DNA of 49,611 nt, from contig WQRI01000004.1 in NCBI GenBank assembly GCA_009786825.1, positions 1-49,611 of the forward strand, given 5' to 3'. The notes under the pieces were generated by a model. The model searched no databases. It worked only from the letters and a program-made list of their open reading frames with translations, and had not been told where the DNA came from. Shown piece after piece: positions 1,619 through 39,860 of the stretch. The stretch is from Bacillota bacterium. Lineage in GTDB: Bacteria > Bacillota > Clostridia > Christensenellales > WQRI01. The stretch's first letter is position 1. Every line of letters starts with the position of its first letter. The position numbers and the translations under genes are program-made.

Positions 1619-1619
1619 T

Positions 1620-6388: not shown

Positions 6389-6393
6389 AAAAT

Positions 6394-8073: not shown

Positions 8074-8123
8074 TACGCTAAAACCACCACCCCAAAAAGA
8101 CTAAAATCACCACCCAAAAACCA

Positions 8124-13032: not shown

Positions 13033-15414
13033 ATGTACTCATACGAATGGGATAAAGAAACAGGTGGGTTTGTTTTAAATACCAAACCGCAAGGCTTCTC
13101 TAAAGAGCCACGACCCGTGTGGTATCATGAATTAGACCTATTAGGCTTTGACAAATATTGGGTGTATCCAAAATGCAAAGAGACACCCATTATGTGGGCG
13201 GAGGCAACAAGCTACATATATAGAGGCAGAAAAATTGCTAAGATATCTGGCGGAAGCACTTACACAGCACCGAAGTTGGAGATAATAGAGCACTACCCAG
13301 AAGGCAAAAAAAGCGATGCCGAGTTTAAAGGTACAAAAGAAGATGCTTTTAAGTTTGATGTTAACGAAACAAACTCGCTTCAGTTAATAGATATTGAGCG
13401 ATTTGTAGGAAAAAACGCAAACTTAATGGATGCTTTAGCCAACAAAACAATAAAAGACCTTTACAATACTTACAAAAAGTTTCAACCGCAAATTGATGTA
13501 TTTCAAGTGGCTTTCTCGGGCGGTAAAGATAGCATTGTGCTTTTAGATTTGGTTAAAAGAGCAATACCCGAAAAAGACTTTATTGTTGTGTTCGCCGATA
13601 CGCAAATGGAATTTCCCGATACATACGACCTAGTTGACAAAGTGGAGGCACAACTAAAAACAGAAGGGATAACCTTTTTAAGAGCAAAAAGCCATTTAGA
13701 TATAATGTATACTTGGCAAGAGTTTGGACCACCGTCAAGCACTTTGAGGTGGTGTTGCACAGTGCATAAAACTGCACCACAATTGGCAAGAATAAGAGAG
13801 CACGAAGGAAAAAGCGATTTAATAAAGATGTCATTCATTGGCGTTAGGGCTGATGAAAGCTTAGCAAGAAGCGAGTATGACGCATTAGCGGAAGGCAGAA
13901 AAATCAGAAAACAATTTGCATATAGACCAATTTTAGAGTGGAGTAGTGCGGAGGTTTGGATGTATAAGATTAAAAGAAACCTAGAAATCAATGAGGCTTA
14001 TAAGAAGGGAAGCAGTCGTGCTGGGTGTATAGTATGCCCGATGTCAAAAGGACACAGCGAGTTTATTAGAAAAGCACTTTATCCTAATCAAAGTCAATCA
14101 TTCTACGAGTCAATTTACAACTCATACGGGATAACAAAGGACAGTGAGCAAGAACGATATGCGGAAAAAGGTATATGGAGATACCGTGCAAGCGGAAAAT
14201 CTCTTGCTAACTGCCATAGTCTTTTTTCAAACAGCACAGGCGAGGCGCAAATAGTTTTACACCTAGGAGTACCTAAGGTCAGTTGGAAGGAGTGGATGAA
14301 AACTTTGGGTGGTTTAACACAGATAAGCGAGCACACCTTTGAATTAAAAATAGAAGGAAAAAAAATTGATTTTAAGGTGAAAGAAAAGCAAGACGGACTA
14401 GAGATTATTTATAGCTCGAAAATAGCAAAAGAAGCATCAAGCATAAATAAGTTGTTCAAACAAGTGTTTATCAAATCAACGCACTGTATAATGTGTAAAG
14501 CTTGCGAAGCAAACTGCCCTACAGGGAATATAGATTCTACTGGCGGAAATTTAAAGATAGAGGGATGCACACAGTGTTTAATGTGCCACACAGTTGCTGA
14601 TGGGTGTTTAGTTTATCAGTCTAGGAAAGTTCCAAAAGGAGATGGAAGAATGTCTAAAAGTATAAGTGCTTATTCAACGCACGCGCCAAAAAAAGATTGG
14701 GTATTTGATTTTTTAAGATTACAAGAAAAATATTTCCAACAAGCAGGACTCTCTTCGAGAAAGCAAGATGAGTTTAAGAAGTTTTTAAGGCACGCAGGCT
14801 TATTGGAAAAAGACAGCATTAGTGGTTTTTCACAATCGCTTTCAATGGCTAATGGAGAGTCTACTGTCTTAGGTTTGATATTATCCAATCTTGCTTATAG
14901 TACCCAAATAGGCTGGTGGATTAAGAATGTAAGAGGGTTTAATAGCAGAGATGATTTAAGAGGTTTGTTATTAGGCTTTGACCAAACTGAGGGAAGTATA
15001 AAAAATGCGTTGCAAGAGTTCCCGTTGCTGTTAGATATCTTCGAACCTGTTGGCTTAGGACGTGTAGAGCGTAAAGTAAGCAAAAGCGGTAAAGAGGGGC
15101 AAGTAGAAGGTTTTACTAGACTTAGCTGGGAAAATCCTGAGCCTGCTGTGATATTGTATTCGCTCTACAAAATGGCAGAGAAAAACGGTGGACTGTATGA
15201 GTATAGACTAGAAAGGTTAATGGACTTTGATATAGATGGTGAGGGTATTTCGCCCGCGCAAATTTTTGGTTTAAGTGCAGAAGCGCTCTCGCAGGTACTA
15301 GTAGAGATAAGTGTAAGGTATCCAGAGTTTGCCGAGTATAGCCAAACGCACGGACTTAAAATACTAAAGCTAAAAAAAGAAAAGACAAGTAAAGAAATTT
15401 TGGAGTTGCTTTGA
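13033..15414 (+). CDS. brxP: BREX type 4 BrxP: PAPS-reductase family + 4Fe-4S + DUF4007-like domain
   Basis: VAFSGGKDS, RWCCTVHK, GVRADES, RAGCIVCP, CIMCKACEANCP ferredoxin motif; first gene of a brxC-pglZ-brxL operon. Confidence 0.85.
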   Translation: MYSYEWDKETGGFVLNTKPQGFSKEPRPVWYHELDLLGFDKYWVYPKCKETPIMWAEATSYIYRGRKIAKISGGSTYTAPKLEIIEHYPEGKKSDAEFKGTKEDAFKFDVNETNSLQLIDIERFVGKNANLMDALANKTIKDLYNTYKKFQPQIDVFQVAFSGGKDSIVLLDLVKRAIPEKDFIVVFADTQMEFPDTYDLVDKVEAQLKTEGITFLRAKSHLDIMYTWQEFGPPSSTLRWCCTVHKTAPQLARIREHEGKSDLIKMSFIGVRADESLARSEYDALAEGRKIRKQFAYRPILEWSSAEVWMYKIKRNLEINEAYKKGSSRAGCIVCPMSKGHSEFIRKALYPNQSQSFYESIYNSYGITKDSEQERYAEKGIWRYRASGKSLANCHSLFSNSTGEAQIVLHLGVPKVSWKEWMKTLGGLTQISEHTFELKIEGKKIDFKVKEKQDGLEIIYSSKIAKEASSINKLFKQVFIKSTHCIMCKACEANCPTGNIDSTGGNLKIEGCTQCLMCHTVADGCLVYQSRKVPKGDGRMSKSISAYSTHAPKKDWVFDFLRLQEKYFQQAGLSSRKQDEFKKFLRHAGLLEKDSISGFSQSLSMANGESTVLGLILSNLAYSTQIGWWIKNVRGFNSRDDLRGLLLGFDQTEGSIKNALQEFPLLLDIFEPVGLGRVERKVSKSGKEGQVEGFTRLSWENPEPAVILYSLYKMAEKNGGLYEYRLERLMDFDIDGEGISPAQIFGLSAEALSQVLVEISVRYPEFAEYSQTHGLKILKLKKEKTSKEILELL

Positions 15415-15437
15415 TTTGAAACAAGGCACAAAAAGTA

Positions 15438-18400
15438 TTGTACATAAGGAAACACATTATGTCAAATTATAAAGAGTATTTTAATATCGAAGACAAGCAA
15501 GCTGTTATGGACAAGGCTCAGTTTGAGAAAAATCCACAACTCGTGACAAACTTTTACCCTCATAAAGATTTTGTGAAATTGCTTGAAGATACACAAAAGG
15601 TTTTGTCTAGACAAGAAAAGAAGTCGATATGGATAGAGGGTGTTTATGGCACGGGGAAAACTCACGCTGTGTTGACGCTTCAAAACTTGCTTGATTGCAA
15701 TGAGGCTGAGCTAGTTAGCTATTTTGATAGCTTTCAGCAAAATTTGAGTAAAGAGCTAAAAGACAAATATGTTAGACTAAAACAAACTATCAAAATTTTG
15801 ACTGCTTTTAAGTCGGGTGATAGCGGGCTACACACTCAGGACGATTTGATTCCAGCTTTACAGATGACAATATCCAAGAGGCTTAAGGAAAAGGGGCTGA
15901 TAGAAGCGGAAGGTGCACTAAAAGAAGCGGGGGTAAGATGGTTAAAAGATGCAACAAACGCTAAAATATTTCAAACACTTATAGATGAAGATGTTGATAA
16001 AACCTTTACTAATCCAAATACAGTAGAAGGCATTTTGAAAGTGCTTGAAAGCGAAGATGAAGATGCTATTTTAGGTATGGTGCAAAAGTGTTCCATATTA
16101 GCAAAAAACAGAAATATTGATTTGTTTACTCCAAACTTAGAAGAATTTAAGGCGTGGGTAAATAAAGTTATTGAGGTTAACAAATTAACCGCACTTGTCT
16201 TTTTTTGGGATGAACTAACTAAGTTTTTTGAAAACTCAACAAGCTTAGTTGTTTTTCAAGAAATTGCACAAATGTCTATGTTAGACTCTCCTTTCATTTT
16301 AATACCTGTCACGCACAGTATTGACGAGAAAGTTCTAGGTGATTCTAAAAGTGCAGAAAGTAAGAAAATAAGAGATAGATTTATTGTTAGAAGCTTAGCA
16401 CTCTCAAGCAATATAGCTATTGAGCTTATGGCTAATGCTTTACGGAAAAACGAAGCAAGAAAGTCAGAGTGGGAAGGGGTTGAAAACACGCTTAATGATA
16501 GGGTTGACAAGGTAAGAAAGATTGTGGCTAACTCAATCAAAGCAAAAGAAGAACATATTAGAGGCGTGTTGCCTATTCATCCATACTCAACATTAGTGTT
16601 AAAGCATTTAGCAAAAGAGGTAGCCTCAAATCAAAGAAGCATATTTACTTTTATAGCAGACAACGAAGATAAGAGAAGTTTCAAGTATTTTCTAGCAAAC
16701 AACAAGCCACACATGCTGCTAACAGTACCTCATCTATGGCATTTCTTTTATGAGGGAGTTTCTTTAAACAACACAACAACTAGAAGCGTAATGCAAGCAT
16801 TTAACAATGCTAAAATATCAAAACTAAACGATAAAGAGCAAATGGTTTTGAAAGCGATTTTGCTTTTAATTGCCACAAGTAAAAGCTTAATGGATAGCGA
16901 TGAGTTGCTTTTGCCAACAGAAGACAACTTGCGACTTGTTTTTGAAGGTTGTGAAGTTATAACAGTAAACAACGCAGTAAATATAGCCAATAGCTTGTTG
17001 AAAGACAACTACATTTTAACTAAAACACAAAGCGGAAAAACAAAATACGATGTATCTTCAGACCATATAGATACAAGCAGACTAAAAGAAGAAAAAGAAA
17101 AAATTTCTTTATCAACTAAAGAGCTAGCAGAAGATGCGGAGCTAGGAAATATTCTTGCTTACAAAAAGCCTTTAGAGTTGAGGTTTGACACTAAGATGTC
17201 AAGCGTTAATGATTTTTCTAGAGAAGTTGGTGCGTTGAACAACTCTAGCCCAGCAAGCAATAAAATTTATGTTAGGTTTTGTATTGCTTCTAGCCAAATC
17301 GAAGCAAATAAAGTAAGAGAAAAAATAGCAGAAGCTAGCAAAAATATAAAAGGCAGTAACCTTGACTTTGTCTTGGTTGACGCATCTCGAGCATTTTTAA
17401 GCGACCAAGATAGAGAAGAATATAAAACATATAAAGCACGAGAAAATATACTTCGAGATAGTAATAGGGCGGATAGTCAAAACTACGCAAGGCAAGCGAA
17501 TCAGGTATTGAACAGGTGGAAAGATAGTTTTAAAAAAGAAAAGTTCGTTTTGCATATTTTAAGTGAAGGTAGACAAATCGAAGCAACAGGTTTGGCAGAA
17601 GTTTTAGAACAACTTTACAAACTTAATGCAAGACTTTATCCGTATGCGCCAGAAAACATCGGAAGTTTTGTTGATACGCTATTTCCAATTAACAACAGGA
17701 GGCAGGCGGCAGATTTAGGTATTTTGGAGGACAGAGCAAAGCCAACAGGAGCGTTTTCGGGCGGCAAAACACAAATTGCATCAACCTTAGATGGTGCTTG
17801 GATGGTGTCTGATTATTGGGTATATAGACCCGAACTACCTATTTCAAAAATCAAAAAGGAAGTTGACCTGTTTATTGAAAATTCGCAGTCTAACACAAGG
17901 GAAGTGTCTTTGAATGCATTAATGGAGCATCTTTCGCAAAAACCTTATGGCTTTTTAGGGCATTCAATTTCGGCTTTCTTTTTAGGGTTTTTGCTAAAAG
18001 AATATGCAAGAGAGGAAGGTTATACATACAGGTTTGGCGATGTAGATGAACCGTTAACTGAGAGCAACTTACAAACTGCTATTGTGACAGCAATAGAAAA
18101 CATAAGCCAAGCAGAATTAAAAAAGAAGCCCATTTACATAGGCAAGCAAAGCGAGCAAGCAAATGCATTTGCAGAAAAATCTCAAATAATTTTTAACCTA
18201 AGAGATTTAAGTTTGTCTGTTGCAAAAGTTAGAGAAAATCTAAGGCAAAAAATGCAAGACTTTGTGTTTCCGCTATGGGCATTAAAAGAGTCGGGCAGCT
18301 TTCCGAAACAAGTAGAAAACATTCTAGACATGTATATAGGAATTTTAAACACTCGTAATTTTGAAAGTGGCACAGACACAGAGTATAATATAGCAAGCAA

Positions 18401-19619
18401 AATAGGGCAAAAATTTATTTCACAACCAAGTATTGTTGGCGACTTGAAAAATTTGATTGAGCAAGAAAACTTCAACAACGGTATGCGAGCTGTTGTGATG
18501 AGCTACAAAGAAGGTGAGTTAAGCAAACTTGCAACAAGCTTAGGTTACAATTATCTAGAACTTCTTATGCAGAGTTTTAAGCAAGATGCAGGGAGCTGGG
18601 CGTGGGACAAAGAGACAGGTCTTAGCCAAGTAAAAAGCTTGATAGAGTGGTTAGAGTTAGTTCAAGTTTCTAAGGTAGTGGGTGTTCAAGTATCAAAGAC
18701 TGAAGGCTCTGCCAAAAATGCACTAGTAGATAGTTGGAGAATTGAACTGGAGGCATTTAAAGTGCCTAGTGAAATATTAAAAGATTTTGAGGTTGACACA
18801 GTACTTCTAGATAGCTTGAAGGAAATGTATGTTCAACGAACGATACACCATTCAAGTAAATTTTTAGAATTACTAAAGGCTCACAAGGATAAGCTAAAAG
18901 ACTTGCTAGCACACAAAGCAAGTTATTTCAACAAGTTTTTGACTGCACAATTCACACGAATATCTGCACAAGAGCAAAATGCAATTTACGACAAAGCGCA
19001 CCAAGGACAATTTGCAAAGGACAAGGACAGCTATATGGCTCATATTTCGCAAATTGTGACGGAACACGCACAAGATTCAGGCAGGGAAAAGCTGCGAGCT
19101 ATATGGTTTGACAAAACAGGAAGTAATACCCCAAGAGAGTGGTCAAGCAAAAGCCAAACGCCAGCGTTGATATTTTGTGGTGTAGAAGAGATAAGCAAGG
19201 CGAAGAGGTCTTTCGGTATAATCAATGGAAATTTAATCCAACCATCAGGCAAAGATATTGAAGAAGGATTACAATTTTTGAGTTCTCTAGACTGGTTGTG
19301 CAAACTTAGCGACAAGAGTTTTGTCGATAGTAAGTTTGGAGAGGTAATCATTGGCAGGTATATAGGCTTGGTAGGTGTTAACGAGGCTAGAAAATATCTT
19401 TCAGATAAACTAATAGAGCACCCATATGACTGGTTTGATAGTAAACAAGTTCAAGACAAAGTGCGTGAAATTGCAGAAGTGAACTATAAAAAAGATGGTA
19501 TCAGTAGAGCAATAGAAGCAGTTGACCGAATTGGCGACCCACAAAAGCTAAGAGACTATATTAAACGACTAATTAAAGATAGCTTAGATGTTGGCATTCA
19601 GATTATGAAAGAAGAGTAA
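15438..19619 (+). CDS. brxC: BrxC/PglY-like large ATPase (likely start ATG 15459)
   Basis: Walker A GVYGTGKT, Walker B FFWDE, LPIHPYS and SNQRSIF motifs; operon position. Confidence 0.8.
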   Translation: MYIRKHIMSNYKEYFNIEDKQAVMDKAQFEKNPQLVTNFYPHKDFVKLLEDTQKVLSRQEKKSIWIEGVYGTGKTHAVLTLQNLLDCNEAELVSYFDSFQQNLSKELKDKYVRLKQTIKILTAFKSGDSGLHTQDDLIPALQMTISKRLKEKGLIEAEGALKEAGVRWLKDATNAKIFQTLIDEDVDKTFTNPNTVEGILKVLESEDEDAILGMVQKCSILAKNRNIDLFTPNLEEFKAWVNKVIEVNKLTALVFFWDELTKFFENSTSLVVFQEIAQMSMLDSPFILIPVTHSIDEKVLGDSKSAESKKIRDRFIVRSLALSSNIAIELMANALRKNEARKSEWEGVENTLNDRVDKVRKIVANSIKAKEEHIRGVLPIHPYSTLVLKHLAKEVASNQRSIFTFIADNEDKRSFKYFLANNKPHMLLTVPHLWHFFYEGVSLNNTTTRSVMQAFNNAKISKLNDKEQMVLKAILLLIATSKSLMDSDELLLPTEDNLRLVFEGCEVITVNNAVNIANSLLKDNYILTKTQSGKTKYDVSSDHIDTSRLKEEKEKISLSTKELAEDAELGNILAYKKPLELRFDTKMSSVNDFSREVGALNNSSPASNKIYVRFCIASSQIEANKVREKIAEASKNIKGSNLDFVLVDASRAFLSDQDREEYKTYKARENILRDSNRADSQNYARQANQVLNRWKDSFKKEKFVLHILSEGRQIEATGLAEVLEQLYKLNARLYPYAPENIGSFVDTLFPINNRRQAADLGILEDRAKPTGAFSGGKTQIASTLDGAWMVSDYWVYRPELPISKIKKEVDLFIENSQSNTREVSLNALMEHLSQKPYGFLGHSISAFFLGFLLKEYAREEGYTYRFGDVDEPLTESNLQTAIVTAIENISQAELKKKPIYIGKQSEQANAFAEKSQIIFNLRDLSLSVAKVRENLRQKMQDFVFPLWALKESGSFPKQVENILDMYIGILNTRNFESGTDTEYNIASKIGQKFISQPSIVGDLKNLIEQENFNNGMRAVVMSYKEGELSKLATSLGYNYLELLMQSFKQDAGSWAWDKETGLSQVKSLIEWLELVQVSKVVGVQVSKTEGSAKNALVDSWRIELEAFKVPSEILKDFEVDTVLLDSLKEMYVQRTIHHSSKFLELLKAHKDKLKDLLAHKASYFNKFLTAQFTRISAQEQNAIYDKAHQGQFAKDKDSYMAHISQIVTEHAQDSGREKLRAIWFDKTGSNTPREWSSKSQTPALIFCGVEEISKAKRSFGIINGNLIQPSGKDIEEGLQFLSSLDWLCKLSDKSFVDSKFGEVIIGRYIGLVGVNEARKYLSDKLIEHPYDWFDSKQVQDKVREIAEVNYKKDGISRAIEAVDRIGDPQKLRDYIKRLIKDSLDVGIQIMKEE

Positions 19620-19668
19620 CCTAACAACCGCTGGCATAAGTTGTTATACCTTAAAGCAAGAGAAAAAT

Positions 19669-21765
19669 ATGGTAAGTAAAAGTTATAAAAGCCTAGAGCA
19701 AGCAACAAAGATTATAAGTGGAGCTTCAAACAAAACTCCATTTATAGTCAATGTAAACAGCAGCGAGCAGTACAAGGAAGTGTACTCAAAGTTTAAACAC
19801 CTTGAGACTATTAGGCTTTCTTCTTATATAGTTGCCGACAACCCGCACCCTTGTTTGCAAAACTTGAATAGTGCAGTTAGTAATAGTGCAAAGCCTGCTC
19901 TAGTATTGGGGTTTACACAATACCTTGCGTTTATTGGAAAAGAAAAGCCAATAGAAGACTTTTTGATAAAAACGATAAATGAAACCAACAAGATTATAAT
20001 ACTTACTTTTAATCTAGAAAACTTGCTTGTGAAGTTAGCAAAAGACCCACGCATCGAAAAGAACATCTTATTTATAGAAAGTAGTCGGGCAGTAGAGCAT
20101 CCTAAGATAACAATTTCACAAGGTGCAAAAGACTCACTAAGAATTTTTTTTGAAACCTTAGAAACTGAGGGTTTGCATATTGGGCGAGTGAATGATGTAG
20201 ACGTGAAATCTTTCAAAGACGGCATATGGTCTGTACGGGCAGAATCAAATTATGATATACTTATTAATTCAGGCATATTTGCGGGAGTTTCTGTTGAAGA
20301 AGAGTTTGGAACTAATGAGCAGTGGGAGTTTTTAAACGGGCTACTGAGTAATAAGCATGGCACAAGCACTCTACAAAGTGCTTATCTTTCACTTTTTGTC
20401 AAACAGACTATAGAGAGCATACTTAAAAATTACGATAAACTTGATAGTGACCAAAAGTGGTTTCTGTGGCTGTGTAGTAGGCACGCTACTGAAAACAAAT
20501 ACTTGTCTTTTGCTTTAGAAAAAACAAAATGTAGCACTGACTTTTTACCTAGTATATATGAAGCAATCTTAGATGTGAACTTCAAGGACAAACGGTTCGC
20601 GGGCTTCTACAAGGAAAGAAAAGAGTTGCTTTGCGCTCTTATTAAGAGTAAAGACCACATAAAGCTTTTGAAGAGTTACATAGAGCAAGTAGTCGCAATG
20701 AGTTCGGCAGATAAGGCATACTACTTAACAGACTTAACGCCAACAGAGAGGGAAACGCTTATAAGAACAATAGTGGAAAACAGATATAGCCCTACAGACT
20801 TGCGTAAAATTTTGTCTCATGCTGATAGCAAGCTTTCTGCATATATGAGTTCGTGGACAAGCGATAATGAGCAAATCGATAATTATGTAAGCGCTTACTT
20901 TGACGAGGGCGGATACAAGTACCACAAACTGACGAACCAAGTAACAAACAACTTCTTACAGACTGTAGACTCGAACGCAAGAGAAAGGCAGTATAATAAA
21001 TTGCTTGACACTACAGCACAGGTTTTTTCATCAATAAACAAAGACAAGTCTAAGGTTTATTTTATAGACTCACTAGGATTTGAGTTTGTTGGATATATTG
21101 TAAACAGAACTAGCGAGTTGGGGATAGATTCAAAAGTTACACCAGCAAGGTGCAACTTGCCATCCAGTACAGAGTTCAACAAGCAGTTTTTGAGTGATTA
21201 CAAAGTGGGTGAAAAGAATTATGTAGAGAAGGAATACTTAGACAAACTTAAGCACGGCAAAAACAAGGATGCAACTTTTAGTAAAACAGACTTGCCGATA
21301 CACTTACTGTCCGAACTAGATATAATTGACAAAATAATTGAAAATATAGCAAGAGATTTAGCTAGTTCGAGTTTTGATAAAGTCTTAATTGTTACAGACC
21401 ACGGTTCATCAAGATTGTTTGTGCTTGCTAGAAATAGTGGTGTTTCAAGTCTGGTTGTACAAGCTTCTGGTGGAAGCGGTAGATTTTTGACGCATGATAC
21501 ATATAAAATTTTAAACATAAATGAGTCTCATAAGGCAAGTATAACAATCGAAGACGAGCATGCGATAATAGCGAGCTATAACTATTTTAACAAGCAGTCC
21601 CTAGGAGTTGAAGCCCACGGTGGGGCTACGGTTGAAGAGGTTGTTGTTCCTGTGATTGAGTTTACACTACAAAAAGCAGTCTCATTGCATACACAAATAA
21701 AGAAAGAAGACAAGCAGCCAAAAGGAGAGAAGTCGGCTGCTAAGATAGTGGATCTAGGTATTTAA
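19669..21765 (+). CDS. pglZ: BREX-4 PglZ phosphatase-fold protein
   Basis: FIDSLG, LPSSTEFN, LDKLKH, VTDHGSSR, HGGATVEEVVVP. Confidence 0.9.
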   Translation: MVSKSYKSLEQATKIISGASNKTPFIVNVNSSEQYKEVYSKFKHLETIRLSSYIVADNPHPCLQNLNSAVSNSAKPALVLGFTQYLAFIGKEKPIEDFLIKTINETNKIIILTFNLENLLVKLAKDPRIEKNILFIESSRAVEHPKITISQGAKDSLRIFFETLETEGLHIGRVNDVDVKSFKDGIWSVRAESNYDILINSGIFAGVSVEEEFGTNEQWEFLNGLLSNKHGTSTLQSAYLSLFVKQTIESILKNYDKLDSDQKWFLWLCSRHATENKYLSFALEKTKCSTDFLPSIYEAILDVNFKDKRFAGFYKERKELLCALIKSKDHIKLLKSYIEQVVAMSSADKAYYLTDLTPTERETLIRTIVENRYSPTDLRKILSHADSKLSAYMSSWTSDNEQIDNYVSAYFDEGGYKYHKLTNQVTNNFLQTVDSNARERQYNKLLDTTAQVFSSINKDKSKVYFIDSLGFEFVGYIVNRTSELGIDSKVTPARCNLPSSTEFNKQFLSDYKVGEKNYVEKEYLDKLKHGKNKDATFSKTDLPIHLLSELDIIDKIIENIARDLASSSFDKVLIVTDHGSSRLFVLARNSGVSSLVVQASGGSGRFLTHDTYKILNINESHKASITIEDEHAIIASYNYFNKQSLGVEAHGGATVEEVVVPVIEFTLQKAVSLHTQIKKEDKQPKGEKSAAKIVDLGI

Positions 21766-21792
21766 AAGTATTATAATAGGAGTTAGAGCGAC

Positions 21793-23265
21793 ATGGGCGA
21801 AGCAATAATTACACTTGAAAAAAAACTGAAGGATAGTTTTCCAGAAATGGTAGTTTATAAAGACCTTAAAAAGTCAAACTTTTTTAATTCTTTAACACTA
21901 CCTAGCTTTATGCGAGACTGGCTAATAAAACGTTTTCAAGCGGAAGACGGGTTTTTGGGTGAAGAGCAAATTGAAAATATACGCAACTTTATTGATACAT
22001 ATATTCCTAGAACAAAACAAGACTGGAATAAAATCAAGAGCAGAATAATTAACGAATCAGAGAGGGTTAAGATTTTAGCCAAGATAAGTGTAGATATAGA
22101 TATAAAAACAGGGTGGCGTTTTTTTACCCTTTCTGACTTCGGGCTAGGTAAGGCAGACACTGGTATCCCAAATAATGTATGGTATGATTTTTCCGATGAC
22201 TTTTTAGCGGCAAACGAGATTTGGGGTATAGTTGAATTGGCGTATTTGCCAAAAGACTATTCGGAAGATAAAAAAGGCAAGATAATAATTACAGACTTTA
22301 AAAAGTTTTGTCCATATCAAATAGACCTCAACTTTTACAAAGAGGCACGGAAAAACTTCACGATAGATGAGTGGTTTGATGTTTTGTTGGGTGCAATAGA
22401 TTACAACCCAAGCGGGTATAAGGAAAGAGTTCATAAGCGCACAATGCTTTCTCGATTACTGCCATTTGTTGAAAAGCGATTAAACTTAGTTGAGTTAGCC
22501 CCGAAAGGAACAGGAAAATCGTATGTGTTTGAAAGACTATCAAGGTTTGGCTATTTGGTAGGTGGGGGTAAACTCTCACGAGCTAAGTTGTTTTATGATA
22601 GGTCAAAAAAATCAAGGGGATTAATATTTTCTAATGACTTTGTAGCGTTAGATGAAATTCAAACCATATCAGCAAGTGATCCAAATGATATTAGAAGTGC
22701 GTTAAAAACATATATGGAAAGTGGGCAGTACAGCGGCGATGACTTTAGAGGTGTCGCAGATGCAGGAATTATACTATTAGGAAATATTGAATCAAGAAAT
22801 ATGGACGAGTACACGGATTTATTTTTTGAACTACCAAACCTATTTAAAGAAAGCGCGCTGATTGACCGCTTCCACGGATTTATAATGGGGTGGAATATTC
22901 CTAGAATGAACGATGATTTAAAGATGAATGGATTTGCCCTTAACTCAGAATACTTTACTTCAATAATGAATTTACTCAGAGATGATATAACTTATAGGCA
23001 AATTGTGGATGAAATAATCGAAGTGCCTAAGCACGCAGACACAAGGGATACAGAGGCGATTAAAAGAACAGCAACAGCATTTTTGAAGTTATTTTTCCCA
23101 AATGTTCAGTCTCCTAGCGGTATAGTTGCACACGAATTTGAAGAATATTGTTTGCGCCCCGCGTCAAAAATGCGTGAGATTATCAAATACCAAATGGGGA
23201 AGTTAGATGATGAATTTAAAGGGAAAGATATTCCCAACTTGTTATTAAAGGAAAAATTTAGATAG
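21793..23265 (+). CDS. brxL: BrxL-like AAA+ protein without the Lon protease domain
   Basis: RLLPFVE, ELAPKGTGKS, VALDEIQ, SALIDRFHG..GW, RDTEAIKR. Confidence 0.9.
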   Translation: MGEAIITLEKKLKDSFPEMVVYKDLKKSNFFNSLTLPSFMRDWLIKRFQAEDGFLGEEQIENIRNFIDTYIPRTKQDWNKIKSRIINESERVKILAKISVDIDIKTGWRFFTLSDFGLGKADTGIPNNVWYDFSDDFLAANEIWGIVELAYLPKDYSEDKKGKIIITDFKKFCPYQIDLNFYKEARKNFTIDEWFDVLLGAIDYNPSGYKERVHKRTMLSRLLPFVEKRLNLVELAPKGTGKSYVFERLSRFGYLVGGGKLSRAKLFYDRSKKSRGLIFSNDFVALDEIQTISASDPNDIRSALKTYMESGQYSGDDFRGVADAGIILLGNIESRNMDEYTDLFFELPNLFKESALIDRFHGFIMGWNIPRMNDDLKMNGFALNSEYFTSIMNLLRDDITYRQIVDEIIEVPKHADTRDTEAIKRTATAFLKLFFPNVQSPSGIVAHEFEEYCLRPASKMREIIKYQMGKLDDEFKGKDIPNLLLKEKFR

Positions 23266-24583: not shown

Positions 24584-25743
24584 TTGGAAACAAATGAAAC
24601 ACGACAAGACTATGGTCTTGAAAACACACAAAGCAATGACTTAGAAAACGACTATGGCTTGAGTGCCTTAAAGGAAGAGGCAGAGCCAAAAGTGGACACA
24701 ATGTATAGGAATTGGATGTTTACAATTAACAACCCAGAGCAAACGGAAGCGGAGATTTATACATACTTGTCTAACCTAGACCATGTGAAATACTTTATAT
24801 TCGCAAAAGAAAAAGAGAGCACCGAACATTATCAAGGTTACATAGAATTTTCGCAACCTGTAAGATTTAGCCGAATGCAAAGAGATTTTTCTAAGCCTCA
24901 CATTCTGCCAGGCGGACACCTTGAGAGGCGCAAGGGTAAACGCTCACAAGCAAGAGACTACATTCTCAAACTAGGCAAGTATGCCGACAAGGCTCACACA
25001 AGAATTGGCGAAATTCAAGAGTACGGCGAATACATAGAGGATGGTCAACGAACCGACCTTGAAGACTTGGTGCATATGGTTAAAGAAAACCTAAGTGATT
25101 ACGAGATAGCAGAGCAAATGCCAAACGCCTTTGTTAGATATGGCAAGTTATTGATATGGTTCGCCGCGCTTACATTGAAGAAGAGTTTGGCAAAAAGCCA
25201 CGCCTTGACTTACAAGTAACCTACATTTATGGCGGAACAGGCAAAGGCAAAACACGCTATGTTATGGACAAATATGGCTATCACAATGTGTTCAGAGTAA
25301 TTGACTACGACAGAGGCACATTTGATGACTACAAAACCCACAAGGTCATTGTAATGGAAGAGTTTCGCTCATCCCTTAAAATCACCGACATGCTAAACTA
25401 CCTAGACATTTACCCAACACCACTAAAGGCACGCTTTAAAAACAAAATTGCATGCTACAACAAAGTTTACATTCTATCCAACATACCGCTTGAGAGCCAG
25501 TACAAAAACATTCAAACAGAAGAGCCAGAAACTTGGAAAGCCTTCAAACGCAGAATACATAGAATTATAAACTGGGACAAGACACTTGCCGTGTCGGGCG
25601 GTGTCTTAACAGAGCAGTCTAAAATCACTCAAGCCACATTAATCAGCGGTAAGGAATGCCAAAGTATGAAACCAATAATAACCGCAAGCGGAAATATCCT
25701 TATCCCACTGTCCCCAACAGAAGAGGATGAACTGCCGTTTTAA
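24584..25743 (+). pseudogene. rep: Second CRESS-type Rep, split by a 1-nt deletion near 25147-25151
   Basis: HUH motifs in 24584-25219 and SF3 motifs in 25156-25743, collinear with Rep1; AAAGGAGG RBS + TTG. Confidence 0.85.
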
Positions 25744-25840: not shown

Positions 25841-26143
25841 ATGTTAGAAAATTTGTTGATTGGTTGTGCTGGGAGTAAAGAACTTGAAATAGGTGCTAAA
25901 GAATTTCAAGTGAAGGCTGAGGAATTTGAAATATGTGATAGGGCGTGTGGTGTTGAGAGTAAAGAAATTAAAGTAAGTAAACAGATTAAAGAGATAAGTG
26001 AGGATAGTGAAATGCAAGAAAAATTTAATAGACTGCTAAAAATAGGGGTGTATAAAGAGTTACATAAAAAAGGTTTGCTTAGTGACAGTCAATTGTCGGC
26101 GTTGGTTCATATGCAGAATAAACCTTTGAGAATATATTCGTAA
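25841..26143 (+). CDS. Paralog of 6008-6253 (SHOCT-like, candidate directionality factor)
   Basis: Near-identical N- and C-terminal blocks and same position. Confidence 0.65.
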   Translation: MLENLLIGCAGSKELEIGAKEFQVKAEEFEICDRACGVESKEIKVSKQIKEISEDSEMQEKFNRLLKIGVYKELHKKGLLSDSQLSALVHMQNKPLRIYS

Positions 26144-26213
26144 AACTAAATAAACTACTCTTTTTTCGGTTTGGAATTGTGGTGATTTAGGCTTAAAAAG
26201 AGACTAAGAACAC

Positions 26214-26284
26214 TTTACAATTCTTGCAAAATGTGGTATAATATATTATACACTAAAAGTATTTGCAAGGGTTGTTTAGGAGGT
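26214..26284 (+). promoter_or_regulatory. sigmaA promoter and RBS of LSR2
   Basis: TTTACA 26214-26219, 17-bp spacer, TATAAT 26237-26242, AGGAGGT. Confidence 0.7.
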
Positions 26285-26289
26285 AAAAT

Positions 26290-27965
26290 ATGAAACACTA
26301 AGCAAAATAATAGTGCCTCACGTGCAAACAATATACGCACACAGAGGACTAAATGCACATCACCCAAGCAAAATTATAGTCTCACCTTATTGCCGTGTTT
26401 CTACTGACAAAAACGACCAAGCAAACTCTTATGCAAGTCAAATTAGTTATTTCTCTGAATATATAAATAGGCAAGAAAACTGGGAACTGGGTCAAGTCTA
26501 CGCCGATGAAGGACTAAGTGGAACTAGTGTAAAAAAGCGCAAGCAGTTTAATAGAATGATAGAAGATGCCTTGAATGGCAAAATTAATCTTATTATAACT
26601 AAAGAGGTATCCCGCTTTGCAAGGAATACAGTTGACACACTAACTTATACACGAAAACTTAAAGAGCGCGGCGTTGGGGTATTTTTTGTAAGTGATAACA
26701 TTAATACTATGGACGCCGATGGCGAATTGCGACTTACCATAATGGCAAGTTTGGCACAAGAGGAAAGCCGAAAGACAAGTGAAAGGGTAAAGTGGGGACA
26801 GCGGCGGCAAATGGAAAAAGGTGTTGTATTTGGCAGAGACTTACTAGGCTACACAGTTAAAGGTGGTAAACTCTTTGTAAATGAGCAAGAAGCACTTATA
26901 ATACAGCAAATCTACAATAAGTATACCATAGAGGGCAAGGGAACTTGGGTCATAGCAAGAGAGTTATACGAGGCAGGGATTAAGTCAAAGCGTGTTAAAG
27001 AGTTTTCTAACACAATGATTTTGAAAGTGCTTAAAAATGAAAAGTATGTAGGCGACTTATTGCAAAAGAAAACTTTCACTCCAGATTATCTAACACAAAG
27101 TAAAAAGGTAAACAAAGGGCAGGAAGACAAAATTTACATAAGAGACAACCACGAACCTATAATTGAAAGGTGGCTTTGGGATAAGACACAACAAGAGTTA
27201 GAGAGGCGAAGCCCACCGCTTGAGCAAAAGCAAAGATACTCAAATAGATATTGGTGTAGCGGTAAGGTTAGATGCGAATGCGGACAACGATATGTTAGCA
27301 GAACAAAAGCACTACTAGGTGGAGTTATGCATAAAGCGTGGCGGTGCTTGTCGGCGGCTAATCACGGTACTGAAAAGTTGGGCGTGTTCGGCGAGCAGGT
27401 AGGTTGCAATAGCGCAAGTATAAATGACAAAAGCCTTTTAGCCTTGATGAGTGAGAGTATAAACTTTGTTCAGCAAAACAAGCAGTCTATAACAAAAGAG
27501 ATTTTGCGTGAGATAGAAAGTGTGCAAGAGAATGCAAAACCAGTTGACACAACGCACCATAAGCAAAGGCTTGAAGAGTTGCAAAACAAAAAGACTAAAG
27601 CAATTGACTTAATGCTTGATGGCATAATCACTAAACAAGACTTAAAAATTCAAGCACAGGGGTACGACAAAGAGATAGCGCACATTGCCACGCAACTTGA
27701 AAAGGTAGAGGCTCAAAACAACAAGGCGCGCCAGCAAACACTTGATTTAAGCGCATATGAAAGCCAGATAGAAAATATAATGCAGTTTGGTCAAGAAAAC
27801 GATTTGCTTTACAGAGAACTGCTAGACAAAATAGTTATACATAAAGATAAGTCTATAACTATCTACCTAAACAACTTAGCCAAAGGCATTAAAATTGAGT
27901 ACATAACAACAGGCAAAAAAGACACTTTCAAAGTGGCTATCCAAAGTTTAGAAATGGTTTCTTAA
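26290..27965 (+). CDS. Large serine recombinase 2; 1-nt deletion just after the RBS-linked ATG (open frame from GTG 26313)
   Basis: Same motifs as LSR1; ATG AAA CAC TAA versus ATG AAA CAA CTA in LSR1. Confidence 0.9.
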
Positions 27966-28077
27966 AGCAAAAACAATAAAAAATCAACTAAAATTCTTAG
28001 CATATACCACTAATAAAAACAACTAAAAACCAAAATCAGCAACTTAAAATATGCTTGAAAACTTATCCAAAAACCCT

Positions 28078-28126
28078 AAATGCGCAATTTCGGCAACGAT
28101 GTAGGGACGGAGGAGTTGGCGCACTT
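28078..28126. other. attR (P-B') site, central GG 28104-28105
   Basis: Left arm AAATGCGC.. aligns with 8124-8149; the right-arm motif GCGCACTT is 5 bp closer to the centre than at 8170. Confidence 0.85.
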
Positions 28127-28517
28127 TGAGGTTGTGGGGACTATTGTTTATCAGTTGACTAGGGATATGCACGCAGATGAGATTAAGGCGGCGGGTTATG
28201 ATGGCTGGTATGTAGAACACGGGCTGGGGGTTTATCCGCAGAGTGCGGGGGGCGATGCGTTTACGGCGGCGGCGCTTCAGTCTAAGGGCGACCCTATTGC
28301 CGATATGTACGAGAATTTGGCGGCAGAGCAAAAGGCTCGCGTTACATACGAATACTTGCTAGATATGATAGACGACGAAGATGTAGCAAAACCAATACGC
28401 TTTTTGCGCGAGAGAGAAATTGTTCACTTCCAGCGCTTTGGCGAGGCACTAAACTACGTAAAAGATTGGCAAGAAAAAAAGCACATCTTCTACGGCAACG
28501 AAAGACGCAGAACCTAA
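28095..28517 (+). pseudogene. cotJC: 3' half of the spore-coat manganese catalase CotJC, interrupted by the element array
   Basis: NDVGTEELAHFE..., KGDPIADMYENLAAEQKARVTYEYL, FLREREIVHFQRFGEAL; the N-terminal about 55 aa (YGG.DGE region) is absent. Confidence 0.9.
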
Positions 28518-28568
28518 GAGGTTTTGAAAAACTAATGTGGGATTAGCACATAACAATACATAAAAATT

Positions 28569-28605
28569 AAAATAGGATAGCATTAATTTTTTGCTATCCT
28601 ATTTT
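28569..28605. terminator. Bidirectional terminator between cotJC and the aquaporin
   Basis: AAAATAGGATAGCA / TGCTATCCTATTTT between convergent genes. Confidence 0.8.
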
Positions 28606-28651
28606 GGTTTTAGTGTATGAAGTTTATGGTTGGTACGCTAGTTAGTTTTTT

Positions 28652-29701
28652 CTAGCCGCAGCCGCCGCAAGAGCCTGAGCATTTTGCGCCGCAGGTTTGT
28701 GGCTCTATTAGGTTTTTGTTGTTTTCTGAACTTTCTGCTAGTTTTTCTATGTTTTCTTCTATTTTGCTCTCATTGCCGTCTTTGTCTTTGCTGAACACGC
28801 CTTCTTTTGTGTAGACTTTGTCTTCGTAGTAGCCCCACGCGTGACATTGGTGAAGTACGCTTTCTGTTGGTGCTTCTGCAAAGTGGTTGTTAGCGAATAG
28901 TGGGCGCCCTATGCGACCTGCTAGATAGCCGGCTAGAAGTGCAGGACCTAAGTAAGCCCATAAGTCTCTTAGTGGGTAGAACCAGTGCGCGCCCGCGTAG
29001 TCTGTTCCCCTTGCGGTATGCTCTAAGCCAAAGAATGCGAATTGTATAGCGATACCAACGTTGATTATAGGGTTTACGCTTGCGCCCCTAATTAGTACTG
29101 CAACTGCGTGTTCTAGCACAAGGGACAGACCAATTGTTACGCCGATTATTCTGTTTTTGCCGTATCTGCCAACCGCGCCAGCAACTAAGAATACGAAAAT
29201 AAATGTTAGCACAAATACAAGAAGCGGAATGTGAAGCATAGCCCAGATGCCTTCGTTGTATTCAACAAGGCGCGGTGGGTATGGGATGTAGTAGTTGCCG
29301 TATGCAGCATAACTTTCTGCATAATAGAATGCGCTAGATGTTAAAAACCAAAGTATGAAGCCCGCCAAAAGCGCACCAACAATTTGGAAAAGCATATACT
29401 TAAAGCTACACCTAACGTAGATTTCGCCGTCGTACGCTTCCCCTAAAGATACTGCGGGGTTTAGGTGACACCCGCTTATAGGCTGTATAACAATGCCAAG
29501 ACCAATAACAATTAAAGAGTACATTAAAAATGATACCCCCAAAGGTTGCATCCAAGTTTTAGTTAATACAGCAGCCAAAATTAGAATTATAACACCCATA
29601 GTCTCAGCCAAAAACTTACGCATACAGCGCCTTTTGATAAAGCCTAAAAACATAGGTTCTTTCTTTTTTACTGGCATAAATATTTCTCCTTTATTTTTCA
29701 T
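28652..29701 (-). CDS. MIP/aquaporin family channel
   Basis: FLAE..G, ISGCHLNPAVSLG, GASVNPI, six TM helices. Confidence 0.85.
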   Translation of the reverse strand: MKNKGEIFMPVKKKEPMFLGFIKRRCMRKFLAETMGVIILILAAVLTKTWMQPLGVSFLMYSLIVIGLGIVIQPISGCHLNPAVSLGEAYDGEIYVRCSFKYMLFQIVGALLAGFILWFLTSSAFYYAESYAAYGNYYIPYPPRLVEYNEGIWAMLHIPLLVFVLTFIFVFLVAGAVGRYGKNRIIGVTIGLSLVLEHAVAVLIRGASVNPIINVGIAIQFAFFGLEHTARGTDYAGAHWFYPLRDLWAYLGPALLAGYLAGRIGRPLFANNHFAEAPTESVLHQCHAWGYYEDKVYTKEGVFSKDKDGNESKIEENIEKLAESSENNKNLIEPQTCGAKCSGSCGGCG

Positions 29702-30064
29702 TATATGAAATGCGTTCTAAAATTATTTTCTGTAATACATTGAACCCGCTTGTAAAACTTAACTGTTTAGGTTTTGCAAAAGGTTCATCGTAGATATATT
29801 TTACTACATTTAAAAAAAAATGTCAACGAACTTAAAATGCTTTATCAATTTTTTTTTGCACCCTAACAAAAAATCGCCCATAAATTTTATTGCATAATTT
29901 GTATAAAAATGATATAATATTTTTAAAGGTCTAGAGTGTTTTTAGAAACTAAACAAAAGTCTGCATTAAAAGGAAAAGTAAAACTTGAAAAGGAAACGAG
30001 AATATAATCTTTTCGGGGAGTTTTGTGGCGCGGGATTTGTCAAAAGCCGGTCACGTGAAAAATT

Positions 30065-30904
30065 ATGGAAAACAACAAAACAGATTTAACGTTTGATTGC
30101 ATAAGGCAATTAGATGTACAAGGTAATGAATTTTGGTATGCAAGAGAATTGATGGGCATATTAAAATATGCCAAGTGGGAAAATTTTCACAAGGTTATCA
30201 AGCAAGCAATGATTAGTTGTAAGATTAGCCAGCAAGATGTTGGTTACAACTTTCCTGAGGTCAGGAAAGTTGCAGTAAGTGAAAATGGTAAAAGGCATTC
30301 AATCAAAGACTATCGCCTTACGCGCTATGCTTGCTATTTGATTGTAATGAATGCAGACCCTAGAAAAGAGGTTATCGCATTAGGTCAAACATATTTTGCA
30401 GTTAAAACAAGGCAACAAGAATTGCAAGAGTTATATAATAGGTTAAGCGAAGATGAAAAGAGACTATTTTTAAGAAGCGACATCAAGCAAAAGAATATGC
30501 TACTTGCAGAAGTTGCGCACAAGGCGGGTATAAACACAAGCCTAGAATATGCAGAGTTTACGAACAAAGGTTACGAAGGGCTTTATGGTGGGCTTACTGC
30601 AAAAGATATTGCTTTTAAAAAAGGCTTAGACGAAAACCAAGAAATTTTAGATTATATGGGTAGCGAAGAGTTGGGTGCGAACTTATTCCGCATAACTCAA
30701 ACTGAAGGTGTGCTTAAAAAAAGCAATGTTACAAATAAGATTTTAGCGGGTGATATCCATTACAACGTAGGCAAAACAGTTAGAAAAGCAATTGAAGAGA
30801 TAGGTGGAACAATGCCGGAAGATTTACCAACGCCCAAAAAGTCTATACCGCAAATACAAAAAGAGCAAACAAAACAACTAAAAGATAAAAAGGGTAAAAA
30901 ATAG
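30065..30904 (+). CDS. dinD: DNA damage-inducible protein D
   Basis: EFWYAREL, LTRYACYLIVMNADPRKE, GQTYFAVKTRQQE, GLYGGL, MGSEELGANLFRITQTE, GGTMPEDLP. Confidence 0.92.
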   Translation: MENNKTDLTFDCIRQLDVQGNEFWYARELMGILKYAKWENFHKVIKQAMISCKISQQDVGYNFPEVRKVAVSENGKRHSIKDYRLTRYACYLIVMNADPRKEVIALGQTYFAVKTRQQELQELYNRLSEDEKRLFLRSDIKQKNMLLAEVAHKAGINTSLEYAEFTNKGYEGLYGGLTAKDIAFKKGLDENQEILDYMGSEELGANLFRITQTEGVLKKSNVTNKILAGDIHYNVGKTVRKAIEEIGGTMPEDLPTPKKSIPQIQKEQTKQLKDKKGKK

Positions 30905-37503: not shown

Positions 37504-37578
37504 GCTTCCGTGGCGCAGGGGTAGCGCACCTCCATGGTAAGGAGGGGGTCGTGGGTTCAAATCCCATCGGAAGCTCCA
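37504..37578 (+). tRNA. tRNA-Thr(GGT)
   Basis: Acceptor GCTTCCG/CGGAAGC, anticodon arm CCTCC-ATGGTAA-GGAGG, GGTTCAAATCC, CCA end. Confidence 0.95.
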
Positions 37579-38858: not shown

Positions 38859-39860
38859 ATGTATAAAAGCGAAATAATTATATTTCAAACTGAAGATGGT
38901 CAAACAAAAATCGAAGTTGTTTTTGACGGCGACACAGTTTGGCTTACACAGGATAAAATAGCAGAACTTTTTCAAAAGAGCCGTAGCACAATAACAGAAC
39001 ACATAAATAATATCTTTGCGGATGGGGAATTAGAAGAAAGTGAAGTTAAGACTTCGGTCGGAAATCCCGACGGAAGTCTTAAACATAGACCTCCTAAATT
39101 ATTTAATTTGGATATGATTTTGGCGGTTGGTTATCGTGTAAAGTCTAACAGGGGCATACATTTTAGAAAGTGGGCAAGTTCTGTACTTAAAGAATATATG
39201 CGAAAGGGCTTTGCTATAAATGATGAACTTTTAAAAAATGCAGGTGGTGGTACATACTTTAAAGAGTTACTTAGCCGAATTAGAGACATTCGCTCTAGTG
39301 AAAAAGTTTTTTATAGGCAAGTACTAGACTTATTCGCAACAAGTGTTGACTACGATAGCAAAAGCGAGATAGCAATAGAGTTTTTCAAAAAGATGCAAAA
39401 CAAACTGCTGTTCGCGGTTAGTGAAAAAACAGCGGCGGAATTAATATCAAGTCGGGCAAATGCAGAACTACCCTTTATGGGACTCAAGGCATTTAAGGGA
39501 GATAAGCCTAAAAAGCACGAGGTTACAGTTTCTAAAAATTATTTGACCGAGTCGGAAATAGTTGATTTAAATTTGACAGTTTCTGCGTATTTGGATATAG
39601 CAGAAAGAAAAGCAATAAGGCAAGAGATTATGCATATGGCGGACTGGGCAAAAGAATTGGAAAGATTTATTGTATACCAAAAAATGCCAGTGTTAAAAGG
39701 TGCGGGCAAGGTAAGTCACGAAGATGCAACAGAAAAAGCAGAAACAGAATATGCAAAATACAAACAAAAAACGAAAGACGAATTAACTCAAGTGGAAAAA
39801 GATTTTCTAGAAACAATTCATAGAACTTATCAACTACTAGAAGGCAAAAAGCCTAAGTAG
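38859..39860 (+). CDS. rhuM: RhuM (virulence RhuM family) protein
   Basis: TVWLTQ..IAELFQ, NLDMILAVGYRVKS, IRDIRSSEKVFY, QNKL..AV...TAAE. Confidence 0.9.
   Translation: MYKSEIIIFQTEDGQTKIEVVFDGDTVWLTQDKIAELFQKSRSTITEHINNIFADGELEESEVKTSVGNPDGSLKHRPPKLFNLDMILAVGYRVKSNRGIHFRKWASSVLKEYMRKGFAINDELLKNAGGGTYFKELLSRIRDIRSSEKVFYRQVLDLFATSVDYDSKSEIAIEFFKKMQNKLLFAVSEKTAAELISSRANAELPFMGLKAFKGDKPKKHEVTVSKNYLTESEIVDLNLTVSAYLDIAERKAIRQEIMHMADWAKELERFIVYQKMPVLKGAGKVSHEDATEKAETEYAKYKQKTKDELTQVEKDFLETIHRTYQLLEGKKPK

Follow-up and report, generated by a model that had tools for sequence, protein, structure and literature searches.

How the sporulation gene cotJC came to be split in an uncultured spore-former of the termite gut, and whether it could be made whole again, are the questions raised by a stretch of 49,611 nucleotides, here called the window, which is the entire contig C4 (WQRI01000004.1) of the Clostridia-type metagenome-assembled genome (MAG) G000 (1.70 Mb, 103 contigs, 85.8% complete). 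The original prediction for this locus, made from the letters alone, was that mobile elements interrupt cotJC and that excision of the whole array would restore it. Two related large serine recombinase (LSR) elements, X and Y, were found in tandem, so that the plural in that prediction was apt. This array splits cotJC, and we lean, if only slightly, towards the reading that its removal by recombination between the outer attachment (att) sites, attL and attR, restores the gene in the sporulating mother cell.

The 3' part of the gene and its terminator lie in the window as follows.

28095-28517, forward strand: 3' two-thirds of cotJC, from N-D-V-G-T-E-E-L-A-H to the stop codon (Pfam, profile match in its own genome, intact homologues continuous over the join)
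28563-28611, forward strand: terminator-like hairpin after the cotJC stop, a 20-bp stem followed by a U-rich run (fold of 28515-28640)

The open reading frame (ORF) at 28080-28517 on the forward strand encodes a 145-residue CotJC/Mn-catalase fragment, of which residues 6-131 matched positions 60-198 of the 284 in Pfam profile PF05067 (E 3.2e-31). The CotJC homology begins as abruptly as had been noticed, at N6-D-V-G-T-E-E-L-A-H; residues 1 to 5 (MRNFG) are element-derived and not CotJC-like, the listed ATG (28080) belongs to the element, and host DNA resumes after the dinucleotide GG at 28104-28105. The remaining 3' portion had been called intact, and the ORF indeed runs to its stop and the terminator-like hairpin; the fold of 28515-28640 had a minimum free energy of -40.5 kcal/mol (z -6.9), equalled by none of 200 shuffles.

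A genome-wide search with PF05067 at E values up to 10 returned two matches only, the window fragment (profile positions 52-198) and a 5' fragment on contig C6 (7149-7337, reverse strand; profile positions 1-64, 51.6 bits). The ORF of the latter has 63 codons and ends in ...A-T-L-N-D-V-G-T-stop; cotJC is thus split after codon 63. Directly upstream on the same strand are the genes for CotJB (86.2 bits) and CotJA (33.9 bits) and then an AcrB-type transporter gene, so the expected left flank, with cotJA, cotJB, the 5' part of cotJC and attL, exists in the same genome. Neither an intact cotJC, whose presence elsewhere would have told against the prediction, nor any further PF05067 match was present in the assembled 85.8% of G000. 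All three spore-former markers looked for were found in this genome (Spo0A_C, 140.2 bits; SpoIVA, 353.9 bits; SpoIIID, 110.9 bits), and in B. subtilis cotJ is a mother-cell operon. The closest solved structures to the 3' product were Mn catalases (Alr3090, 6j42/4r42; L. plantarum, 1jku), and its residues 7-125 aligned with 61-190 of chain 1jku_A. The break had been placed at the metal-ligand motif, which holds to within 2 to 3 codons: it falls within the N-D-V-G-T codons, upstream of an E-x-x-H motif whose two residues we take to be metal ligands, going by the L. plantarum Mn-catalase structure.

Two att sites lie in the window, and the third, attL, is on C6.

28078-28131, forward strand: attR, consisting of the P-type arm of Y (AAATGCGC...AACGATGTA), GG at 28104-28105 and a B' arm that is cotJC coding sequence (core in common with attL, comparison of arms)
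8124-8177, forward strand: attM, an attP-like hybrid junction of X and Y, consisting of the P arm of X, GG at 8150-8151 and the P' arm of Y (inverted repeat, arm matrix)

The 11 bases AACGATGTAGG are common to attL and attR and stand in the identical reading frame in both. In cotJC orientation, attL reads ...CTAAACGATGTAGG followed by TACATAG..., and attR reads ...GGCAACGATGTAGG followed by GACGGAG.... Joined at AACGATGTAGG, the halves read ...ATLNDVGTEELAH..., in frame as had been anticipated and as in intact homologues; all nine of the intact metagenome homologues printed across the join point read (N/T/S)-D-(V/I)-(G/A)-T-E-E-L-(A/G)-H, and the closest of the intact homologues read MVTPQAIATLNDVGTEELAH, which is the G000 5' end plus the G000 3' start.

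The site attM is an inverted repeat, AAATGTGC-N18-GG-N18-GCACATTT, with GG 8150-8151 at its centre. In attR, the arm AAATGCGC (28078-28085) stands as far from GG 28104-28105 as the attM arm does from its own GG. Because attM is symmetric about GG and the attR arm is equally spaced, GG was taken as the crossover centre, which agrees with the att core first proposed. The right arm of attM and the element arm of attL on C6 are 95.7% identical over 23 bases. Compared over 26 positions, the P-type arms PX and P'X agreed at 21, PY and P'Y at 22, and cross pairs at 17 to 19; all four have a distal AAATG(T/C)GC and a core-proximal AAC-N-A-N-GTA in common. Since each element's own arms match best, X and Y are two separate, related LSR elements in tandem, each flanked by its own arms. 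No further att site of this type was found in G000, where three other matches to the degenerate arm pattern had no AACGATGTA part before a GG. By itself the 11-base core was not significant in the window (2 matches with at most one mismatch against 0.5 expected; two or more in 9 of 100 shuffles), and what lends it weight is where it lies and in which frame, together with the matching arms. A basic ORF of 58 residues starting right after the attL core was set aside as probably spurious; the same frame stops at once after attM. A 23-base unit, CTAAAACCACCACCCCAAAAAGA, occurs twice in the stretch that separates LSR1 from the attM arm (8078-8120).

The order of the insert is cotJA-cotJB-cotJC5', attL (B-GG-P'X), X, attM (PX-GG-P'Y), Y, attR (PY-GG-B'), and cotJC3' with its terminator. 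The insert measures about 50.3 kb and runs from C6 position 7152 down to 1, through contig C41 (15,195 bases), to C4 positions 1-28103. The first 71 bases of C6 are the exact reverse complement of the first 71 of C41, and the last 75 of C41 are the first 75 of C4; both overlaps are unique among the contig ends of G000. This order is not proven but probable, since C6 and C41 part within repeated genes for collagen-like fibres. Three collagen-repeat tail-fibre-like genes lie there on the strand opposite to the tail module (C6 440-1156; C41 563-1249 and 7497-8189), with near-identical segments (C6 1-259 and 1646-1904, 98.5%), and these repeats broke the assembly. With halves on different contigs of a 103-contig MAG, the split might be an artefact in which parts from different strains were binned together or contigs were misjoined. 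We regard this as very improbable: each junction lies within a long contig (C6, 43.7 kb; C4, 49.6 kb), C41 bridges the two by exact end overlaps, a separately built Logan contig, possibly from the same data, spans attR, and identical junction types occur in many other assemblies.

In serine integrase systems, attP and attB recombine upon integration, and attL and attR recombine only with a directionality factor. Because attM is of the attP type, neither element would be able to leave alone under these canonical rules. As had been proposed, removal of the whole array restores cotJC in silico, and only attL x attR does so: exchange by an LSR at the GG of both sites would excise the array as one circle and rebuild the 198-codon gene exactly in frame. 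By analogy with skin in sigK, SPbeta in spsM and gin in gerE, the sporulating mother cell is the probable setting of this reaction, which would be driven there by a constitutively expressed LSR, with a sigma-70-type promoter, together with a directionality factor. Restoration would then be confined to the terminal cell line, and the elements would persist in the germ line. Excision would need either one LSR or a mixed complex of the two enzymes, LSR1 and LSR2, acting on P'X and PY; cross-recognition of the arms is plausible because the four arms have their distal and core-proximal parts in common.

The state of the two halves bears on whether the gene is ever rebuilt. Of 75 columns conserved to 90% or more in 57 intact homologues, the G000 CotJC joined in silico (198 residues) keeps 73 (0.973; leave-one-out range for the intact homologues themselves, 0.908-1.000, median 0.987). 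It is as conserved as intact homologues, and the halves, which might have been decaying, are not. In another lineage, the interrupted 3' halves of metagenome loci L047 and L055, which have related junction arms, are separated by 43 synonymous and 13 non-synonymous changes, with a synonymous divergence (dS) of 0.70 and a ratio of non-synonymous to synonymous rates (dN/dS) of 0.059. If the insertion is older than the divergence of the two, these values speak for continued purifying selection on split alleles. Among the cotJC fragments from genomes of the order, G000 included, no frameshift or multiple stops were found in homology searches, which favour intact fragments and are biased to that extent; the only internal stops were a single TAA in each of two fragments, one of them the G000 3' half, whose match ran over the element-side stop.

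Possible, though clearly less probable in our judgement than restoration in the mother cell, is plain integration of the lysogenic type with no developmental role, in which the conserved stretch coding for DVGTEELAH in a dispensable coat gene would serve as a docking site, cotJC would be off in lysogens, and excision, if any, would follow induction, for example an SOS response acting through the LexA-like repressor of X. Such integration would accord with the presence of that S24 LexA/UmuD-like repressor, with the fact that neither a sporulation promoter nor a directionality factor was found, and with an excerpt of PMC12122855, in which B. subtilis cotJC mutants are described as without apparent defect. 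A gene that is never rebuilt should decay, and for this reason the 73 conserved columns kept, the relatives' fragments, the dN/dS between two interrupted alleles, and the finding of no second copy in the assembled part of G000 count against it.

The same gene is interrupted repeatedly in related genomes. A PF05067 match is present in 36 of the 61 genomes of the order, G000 included, and mostly extends in a single open frame from profile position 1 to about 198; eight of the 61 carry a split cotJC (G000, G003, G005, G006, G021, G040, G042 and G043). In the stretches analysed from the seven split relatives, an LSR homologue (25-54% identity) adjoins a junction in six, the exception being G003, where the halves lie on short stretches of two contigs. 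Insertions were located near residues 63-68 in G000, G003, G005, G040, G042 and G043 (inserts of 5.1-10.9 kb in relatives where measurable), near residues 146-151 in G005 (25 kb) and G021 (10.9 kb), and near residue 30 in G006 (2.9 kb). At the first of these positions, the relatives' junctions lie within about 20 bases of each other, not all at the same dinucleotide. One cotJC copy of G005 (C1:580978-612121) is doubly interrupted, by 5.3 kb near residue 64, in which no homologue of LSR1 or LSR2 was detected, and by 25 kb near residue 146 with a distant LSR. The second copy in that genome is intact, which would suit plain lysogeny, as would recurrence at one site, since the target specificity of the LSRs alone would produce it.

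A metagenome set of 80 loci was found using the 3' cotJC half. In 57 of these, cotJC is intact with a full 5' half adjoining, and in 11 (L030, L031, L038, L047-L049, L053, L055, L090, L091 and L098) an element junction falls at the same GG; L047-L049 are mutually identical over the 3' half, and the arm of L031 is nearly identical to PY of G000. In a further locus (L074) the break comes a few codons later than GG; in four (L037, L085, L089 and L096) the 5' part is missing residues 1 to roughly 29, and an LSR lies upstream in two of the four. The remaining loci comprise five cut at the contig end and two intact ones matched only from residue 3 or 4. The best matches of LSR2 in the phage collection, two unannotated fecal "Bacteriophage sp." records (42-45% identity), are likewise an LSR adjoining a cotJC half. 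When viral contigs were scanned with LSR1, 36 loci came up (best 54% identity), none with Rep or an arm-matching attP of the free form; one of them (L112) is another integrated copy adjoining a cotJC 5' half. No homologues of the Rep, small-ORF, DUF1848 or AlbA_2 proteins described below were detected by tblastn in the relatives' split-cotJC loci or the metagenome loci; what the elements at the cotJC site have in common is only the LSR. Docking in cotJC is recurrent, at three or more positions, both in an uncultured order from the termite gut and across many metagenomes.

Element X, some 30.4 kb long, spans C6 7152-1, C41 and C4 1-8149. Its features in the window are listed here.

1-8149, forward strand: right-hand part of element X (exact end overlaps with C41 and C6)
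4111-5241, forward strand: intact Rep of X, Viral_Rep plus helicase part (Pfam)
5260-5994, forward strand: DNA methyltransferase of X (Pfam, PHROG methyltransferase)
6394-8073, forward strand: LSR1 of X, 559 residues, with an intact ATG behind AGGAGG (Resolvase 114.2 bits, Recombinase 80.4 bits, phrog_95 E 6.6e-119)

The genes of X encode an AlbA_2/winged helix-turn-helix (wHTH) protein by attL, a tail tube, tail proteins, a tape-measure-like protein and collagen-like fibres, and further the S24 repressor, a sigma-70 region-4 protein, the Rep with its helicase part, the DNA methylase and LSR1, whose gene ends 77 bases ahead of the attM core. Among the 30 ORFs of X scanned with Pfam and PHROGs, several of which (400-750 residues) had no family, no terminase, portal, capsid or other head or packaging gene was recognised. 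Because X has tail genes without recognisable head or packaging genes, release of a phage from it is uncertain.

Element Y (19,954 bp) is a defence island without virion genes. It carries, in order, DUF1848 and AlbA_2/wHTH genes, a type-4 BREX system, a frameshifted Rep, a small ORF and LSR2.

8440-9396, forward strand: DUF1848 protein, left end of Y (Pfam, PADLOC RTasDUF1848)
9549-10871, forward strand: AlbA_2/HATPase_c_4/wHTH protein, left end of Y (Pfam; 46.5%-identical counterpart by attL on C6, tblastn)
13033-15414, forward strand: BrxP (PADLOC, 705.8 bits)
15438-19619, forward strand: BrxC (PADLOC, 487.5 bits)
19669-21765, forward strand: PglZ (PADLOC, 163.8 bits)
21793-23265, forward strand: BrxL (PADLOC, 672.8 bits)
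24584-25743, forward strand: Rep of Y, an HUH Rep of circovirus type with a helicase part, frameshifted into two ORFs (Pfam Viral_Rep PF02407, E 3.5e-16)
25841-26143, forward strand: small ORF of 100 residues upstream of LSR2 (72.7%-identical copy upstream of LSR1 at 6008-6232, tblastn)
26214-26242, forward strand: sigma-70-type promoter-like site before LSR2, TTTACA-17-TATAAT with an upstream TG (11 of 12 consensus matches; conserved before LSR1)
26313-27965, forward strand: LSR2 of Y, 550 residues from a GTG (Resolvase 114.8 bits, Recombinase 74.8 bits, phrog_95 E 1.7e-117)

The consecutive genes for BrxP, BrxC, PglZ and BrxL (13033-23265), a composition that we take to be that of BREX type 4, form a complete-looking set and the main cargo of Y; a BREX system thereby travels on an element that docks in a sporulation gene. 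The Rep of Y is split into ORFs at 24584-25219 and 25156-25743, with residues 36-211 and 193-376 of the X protein (Rep1) aligning in two frames. In both elements Rep is of the circovirus/nanovirus type (PF02407), lies just upstream of the LSR module and shows FTINNP, HYQG and Y-x-x-K motifs and a P-loop helicase part in translation; pairing of Rep and LSR on integrated elements of 20-30 kb seems unusual. At 10867-10933, from the final codons of the AlbA_2 gene into the DNA just beyond them, the 12-mer AATAAATGTCGT is repeated 5.7 times in tandem in an iteron-like manner; next comes a duplicated remnant that corresponds to the C-terminal coding part of an X-type AlbA_2 gene. A second DUF1848 gene copy, apparently truncated, is found elsewhere in G000 (C8:16778-17511; 86.7% identity over 180 residues). 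To the right of cotJC and convergent with it, 28652-29701 on the reverse strand encodes a MIP/aquaporin-family protein of 349 residues with a long C-terminal tail ending in a Cys/Gly-rich motif. Farther into this host side are mobile- or defence-flavoured Bro-N, RhuM, T5orf172 and DUF4238 genes (30065-30904, 38859-39860, 41275-41925 and 42153-43172), which lie near tRNA-Thr (37504-37578) and tRNA-Ser (43467-43557) and possibly form another island.

The two LSR genes, the only ones in G000, both lie inside the insert and are 71.6% identical to each other; both proteins carry PF00239 and PF07508 and are phage-integrase-type large serine recombinases. LSR2 resembles other LSRs only remotely (CcrB scored highest in NCBIfam, at 152.9 bits against a cut-off of 900), and its gene ends 139 bases ahead of the attR core GG. 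Over some 400 bases upstream of their LSR genes, X and Y are near-identical apart from in-frame indels, in multiples of 3; the small ORF and the promoter-like site both fall within this region. From the near-identity arose the idea that the array is a cointegrate formed by homologous recombination, which was rejected: it predicts a middle site with one element's own arms, and attM pairs the P of X with the P' of Y. Two routes to the array are possible: a non-canonical integration of one element into the attL or attR of the other, or an excision-type exchange in which attR of a chromosome copy with X recombined with attL of a copy with Y. The second would give exactly PX-GG-P'Y. The 100-residue small ORF is a positional candidate for an accessory or directionality factor; it matched no family in Pfam, NCBIfam or PHROGs, and the Atlas gave weak SHOCT-like fold hints. 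A sigma-K-like match common to X and Y (11033-11059; C6 5624-5598) was dropped, as it lies inside the duplicated AlbA_2 C-terminal coding remnant.

Several findings weigh against removal of the array in the mother cell. The order C6-C41-C4 rests on end overlaps of 71 and 75 bases at a repeat-rich spot, and the dN/dS value comes from a different lineage, with shared ancestry of the L047 and L055 insertion assumed. The tolerance of cotJC mutants described in the PMC12122855 excerpt means that a permanent knock-out might be tolerated. No B. subtilis-type sigma-E or sigma-K consensus, which may not fit this lineage, was found upstream of cotJA, LSR1, LSR2 or the small ORF, and no directionality factor was recognisable among the element ORFs with Pfam, PHROGs, NCBIfam or Atlas. 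One public run contains the stretch (DNA, as Logan contigs, possibly from the source sample), with no RNA run listed. No contig with a restored attB was found there, and one 6,016-base contig crosses attR unbranched; such contigs drop rare forms and are silent on excision. Over 26000-30000 the Logan contigs showed no joints, with loose ends only inside the LSR gene, where LSR1- and LSR2-like variants collapse.

Two further adverse points concern the array itself. First, attL has an X arm and attR a Y arm, so that restoration requires work across the arms of two elements. Second, a 1-base deletion, by comparison with LSR1, has put the ATG of LSR2 behind AGGAGG (26290) out of frame; this ATG leads a 3-codon mini-ORF, and the long ORF restarts 12 bases later at a GTG without a ribosome-binding site of its own. 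The displaced start could reflect decay, termination-reinitiation or an assembly error; the last may also account for the Rep frameshift, on neither of which the Logan contigs, perhaps built from the same data, give an independent check. If the tandem, with its hybrid outer arms and attP-type middle site, can no longer be resolved, it would be locked and cotJC recently and permanently inactivated. The mismatched outer arms, the out-of-frame LSR2 start, the frameshifted Rep of Y and the missing attB-form contig are all compatible with a locked array. We nonetheless consider this improbable, as LSR1 is whole and starts canonically, no decay is seen in the cotJC halves, and the common arm parts and 71.6% LSR identity make cross-recognition plausible.

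With its Rep damaged and its LSR start displaced, Y probably depends on X or on LSR1. An elaboration that we consider unlikely, although less so than a locked array, is hitch-hiking in two tiers, in which a decaying BREX island, Y, docked beside X, mixed or cross-acting LSRs remove both in the mother cell, cotJC is restored, spores inherit the defence system, and neither element leaves without the other; Y would then have docked possibly when attR(X) of one chromosome copy recombined with attL(Y) of another, which would produce the attP-like middle site just as it is seen. Irrespective of its history, the array poses the question of whether attL and attR sites with arms of two elements can be recombined, by one enzyme or by a mixed complex.

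Restoration of cotJC by removal of the array in the mother cell would place the locus among elements that split sporulation genes, and its link to sporulation is drawn by analogy with them. In SPbeta, which interrupts spsM of B. subtilis, the recombinase SprA is made vegetatively and excision is timed by the 58-residue SprB with its mother-cell promoter, according to the part of PMC4191935 that treats them. Vegetative expression of that recombinase fits the sigma-70-type promoter on the LSRs here, which looks vegetative like that of sprA. Like SPbeta in spsM, the present array is large and phage-derived, has an LSR gene at its edge and splits a mother-cell sporulation gene whose ORF is rebuilt by precise excision (in silico in the present case). 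It is unlike SPbeta in its target, its two tandem elements, the lack of any SprB-like factor or mother-cell promoter among what was found, and an element X without recognisable head or packaging genes.

The skin element in sigK of C. difficile reportedly has a directionality factor, and the recombinase of B. subtilis skin is SpoIVCA. In contrast to skin, the gene interrupted here encodes a coat protein and not a sigma factor, and no regulatory checkpoint is implied. The resemblance to skin elements as surveyed in sections of bioRxiv 10.1101/2022.02.25.481979 is that elements at one site have little but the recombinase in common. For the gin element in gerE of Bacillus cereus ATCC 10987, GirC and GirX are described in PMC5595907 as doing the jobs of recombinase and factor. 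Element Y and the 2.9- to 5.3-kb inserts of G006, G043 and G005 resemble gin, a non-phage intervening element with a developmentally used LSR; Y differs from it in its 20 kb, its BREX system and Rep, its tandem position beside a phage-like element and the lack of a recognised GirX-like factor.

Insertions into cotJC have been listed before. A skin-like element interrupts cotJC of Laceyella sacchari, as one line of bioRxiv 10.1101/2022.02.25.481979 states, and cotJC is named among frequent integration genes, with attribution to Abe et al. 2013, in a line of bioRxiv 10.1101/2021.11.22.469490; beyond these one-line listings, a full-text literature search on cotJC elements found no experimental study. 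Phage phi027 of C. difficile adjoins a cotJC-like gene rather than lying inside it. Target gene and element class are the same here as in the listed cases; the lineage is an uncultured one of the termite gut, and the array has two elements.

As an array of several serine-recombinase elements at one site, the locus also resembles staphylococcal cassette chromosome (SCC) arrays, from which it differs in recombinase subfamily, the Ccr equivalog cut-offs being unmet. Composite SCC and SCCmec arrays at staphylococcal orfX consist of CcrAB serine recombinase elements stacked head to tail with internal att-like junctions; SCC inserts at the end of the gene without inactivating it and has no link to sporulation. 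To the elements that split sporulation genes, the present case adds one documented with all three att sites, both recombinases and an in-frame join. The principle is a known one and is left unchanged; what is particular to this locus is its pair of elements meeting at a hybrid attP-like middle site, together with the BREX cargo and a Rep-LSR module whose Rep is of circovirus type.

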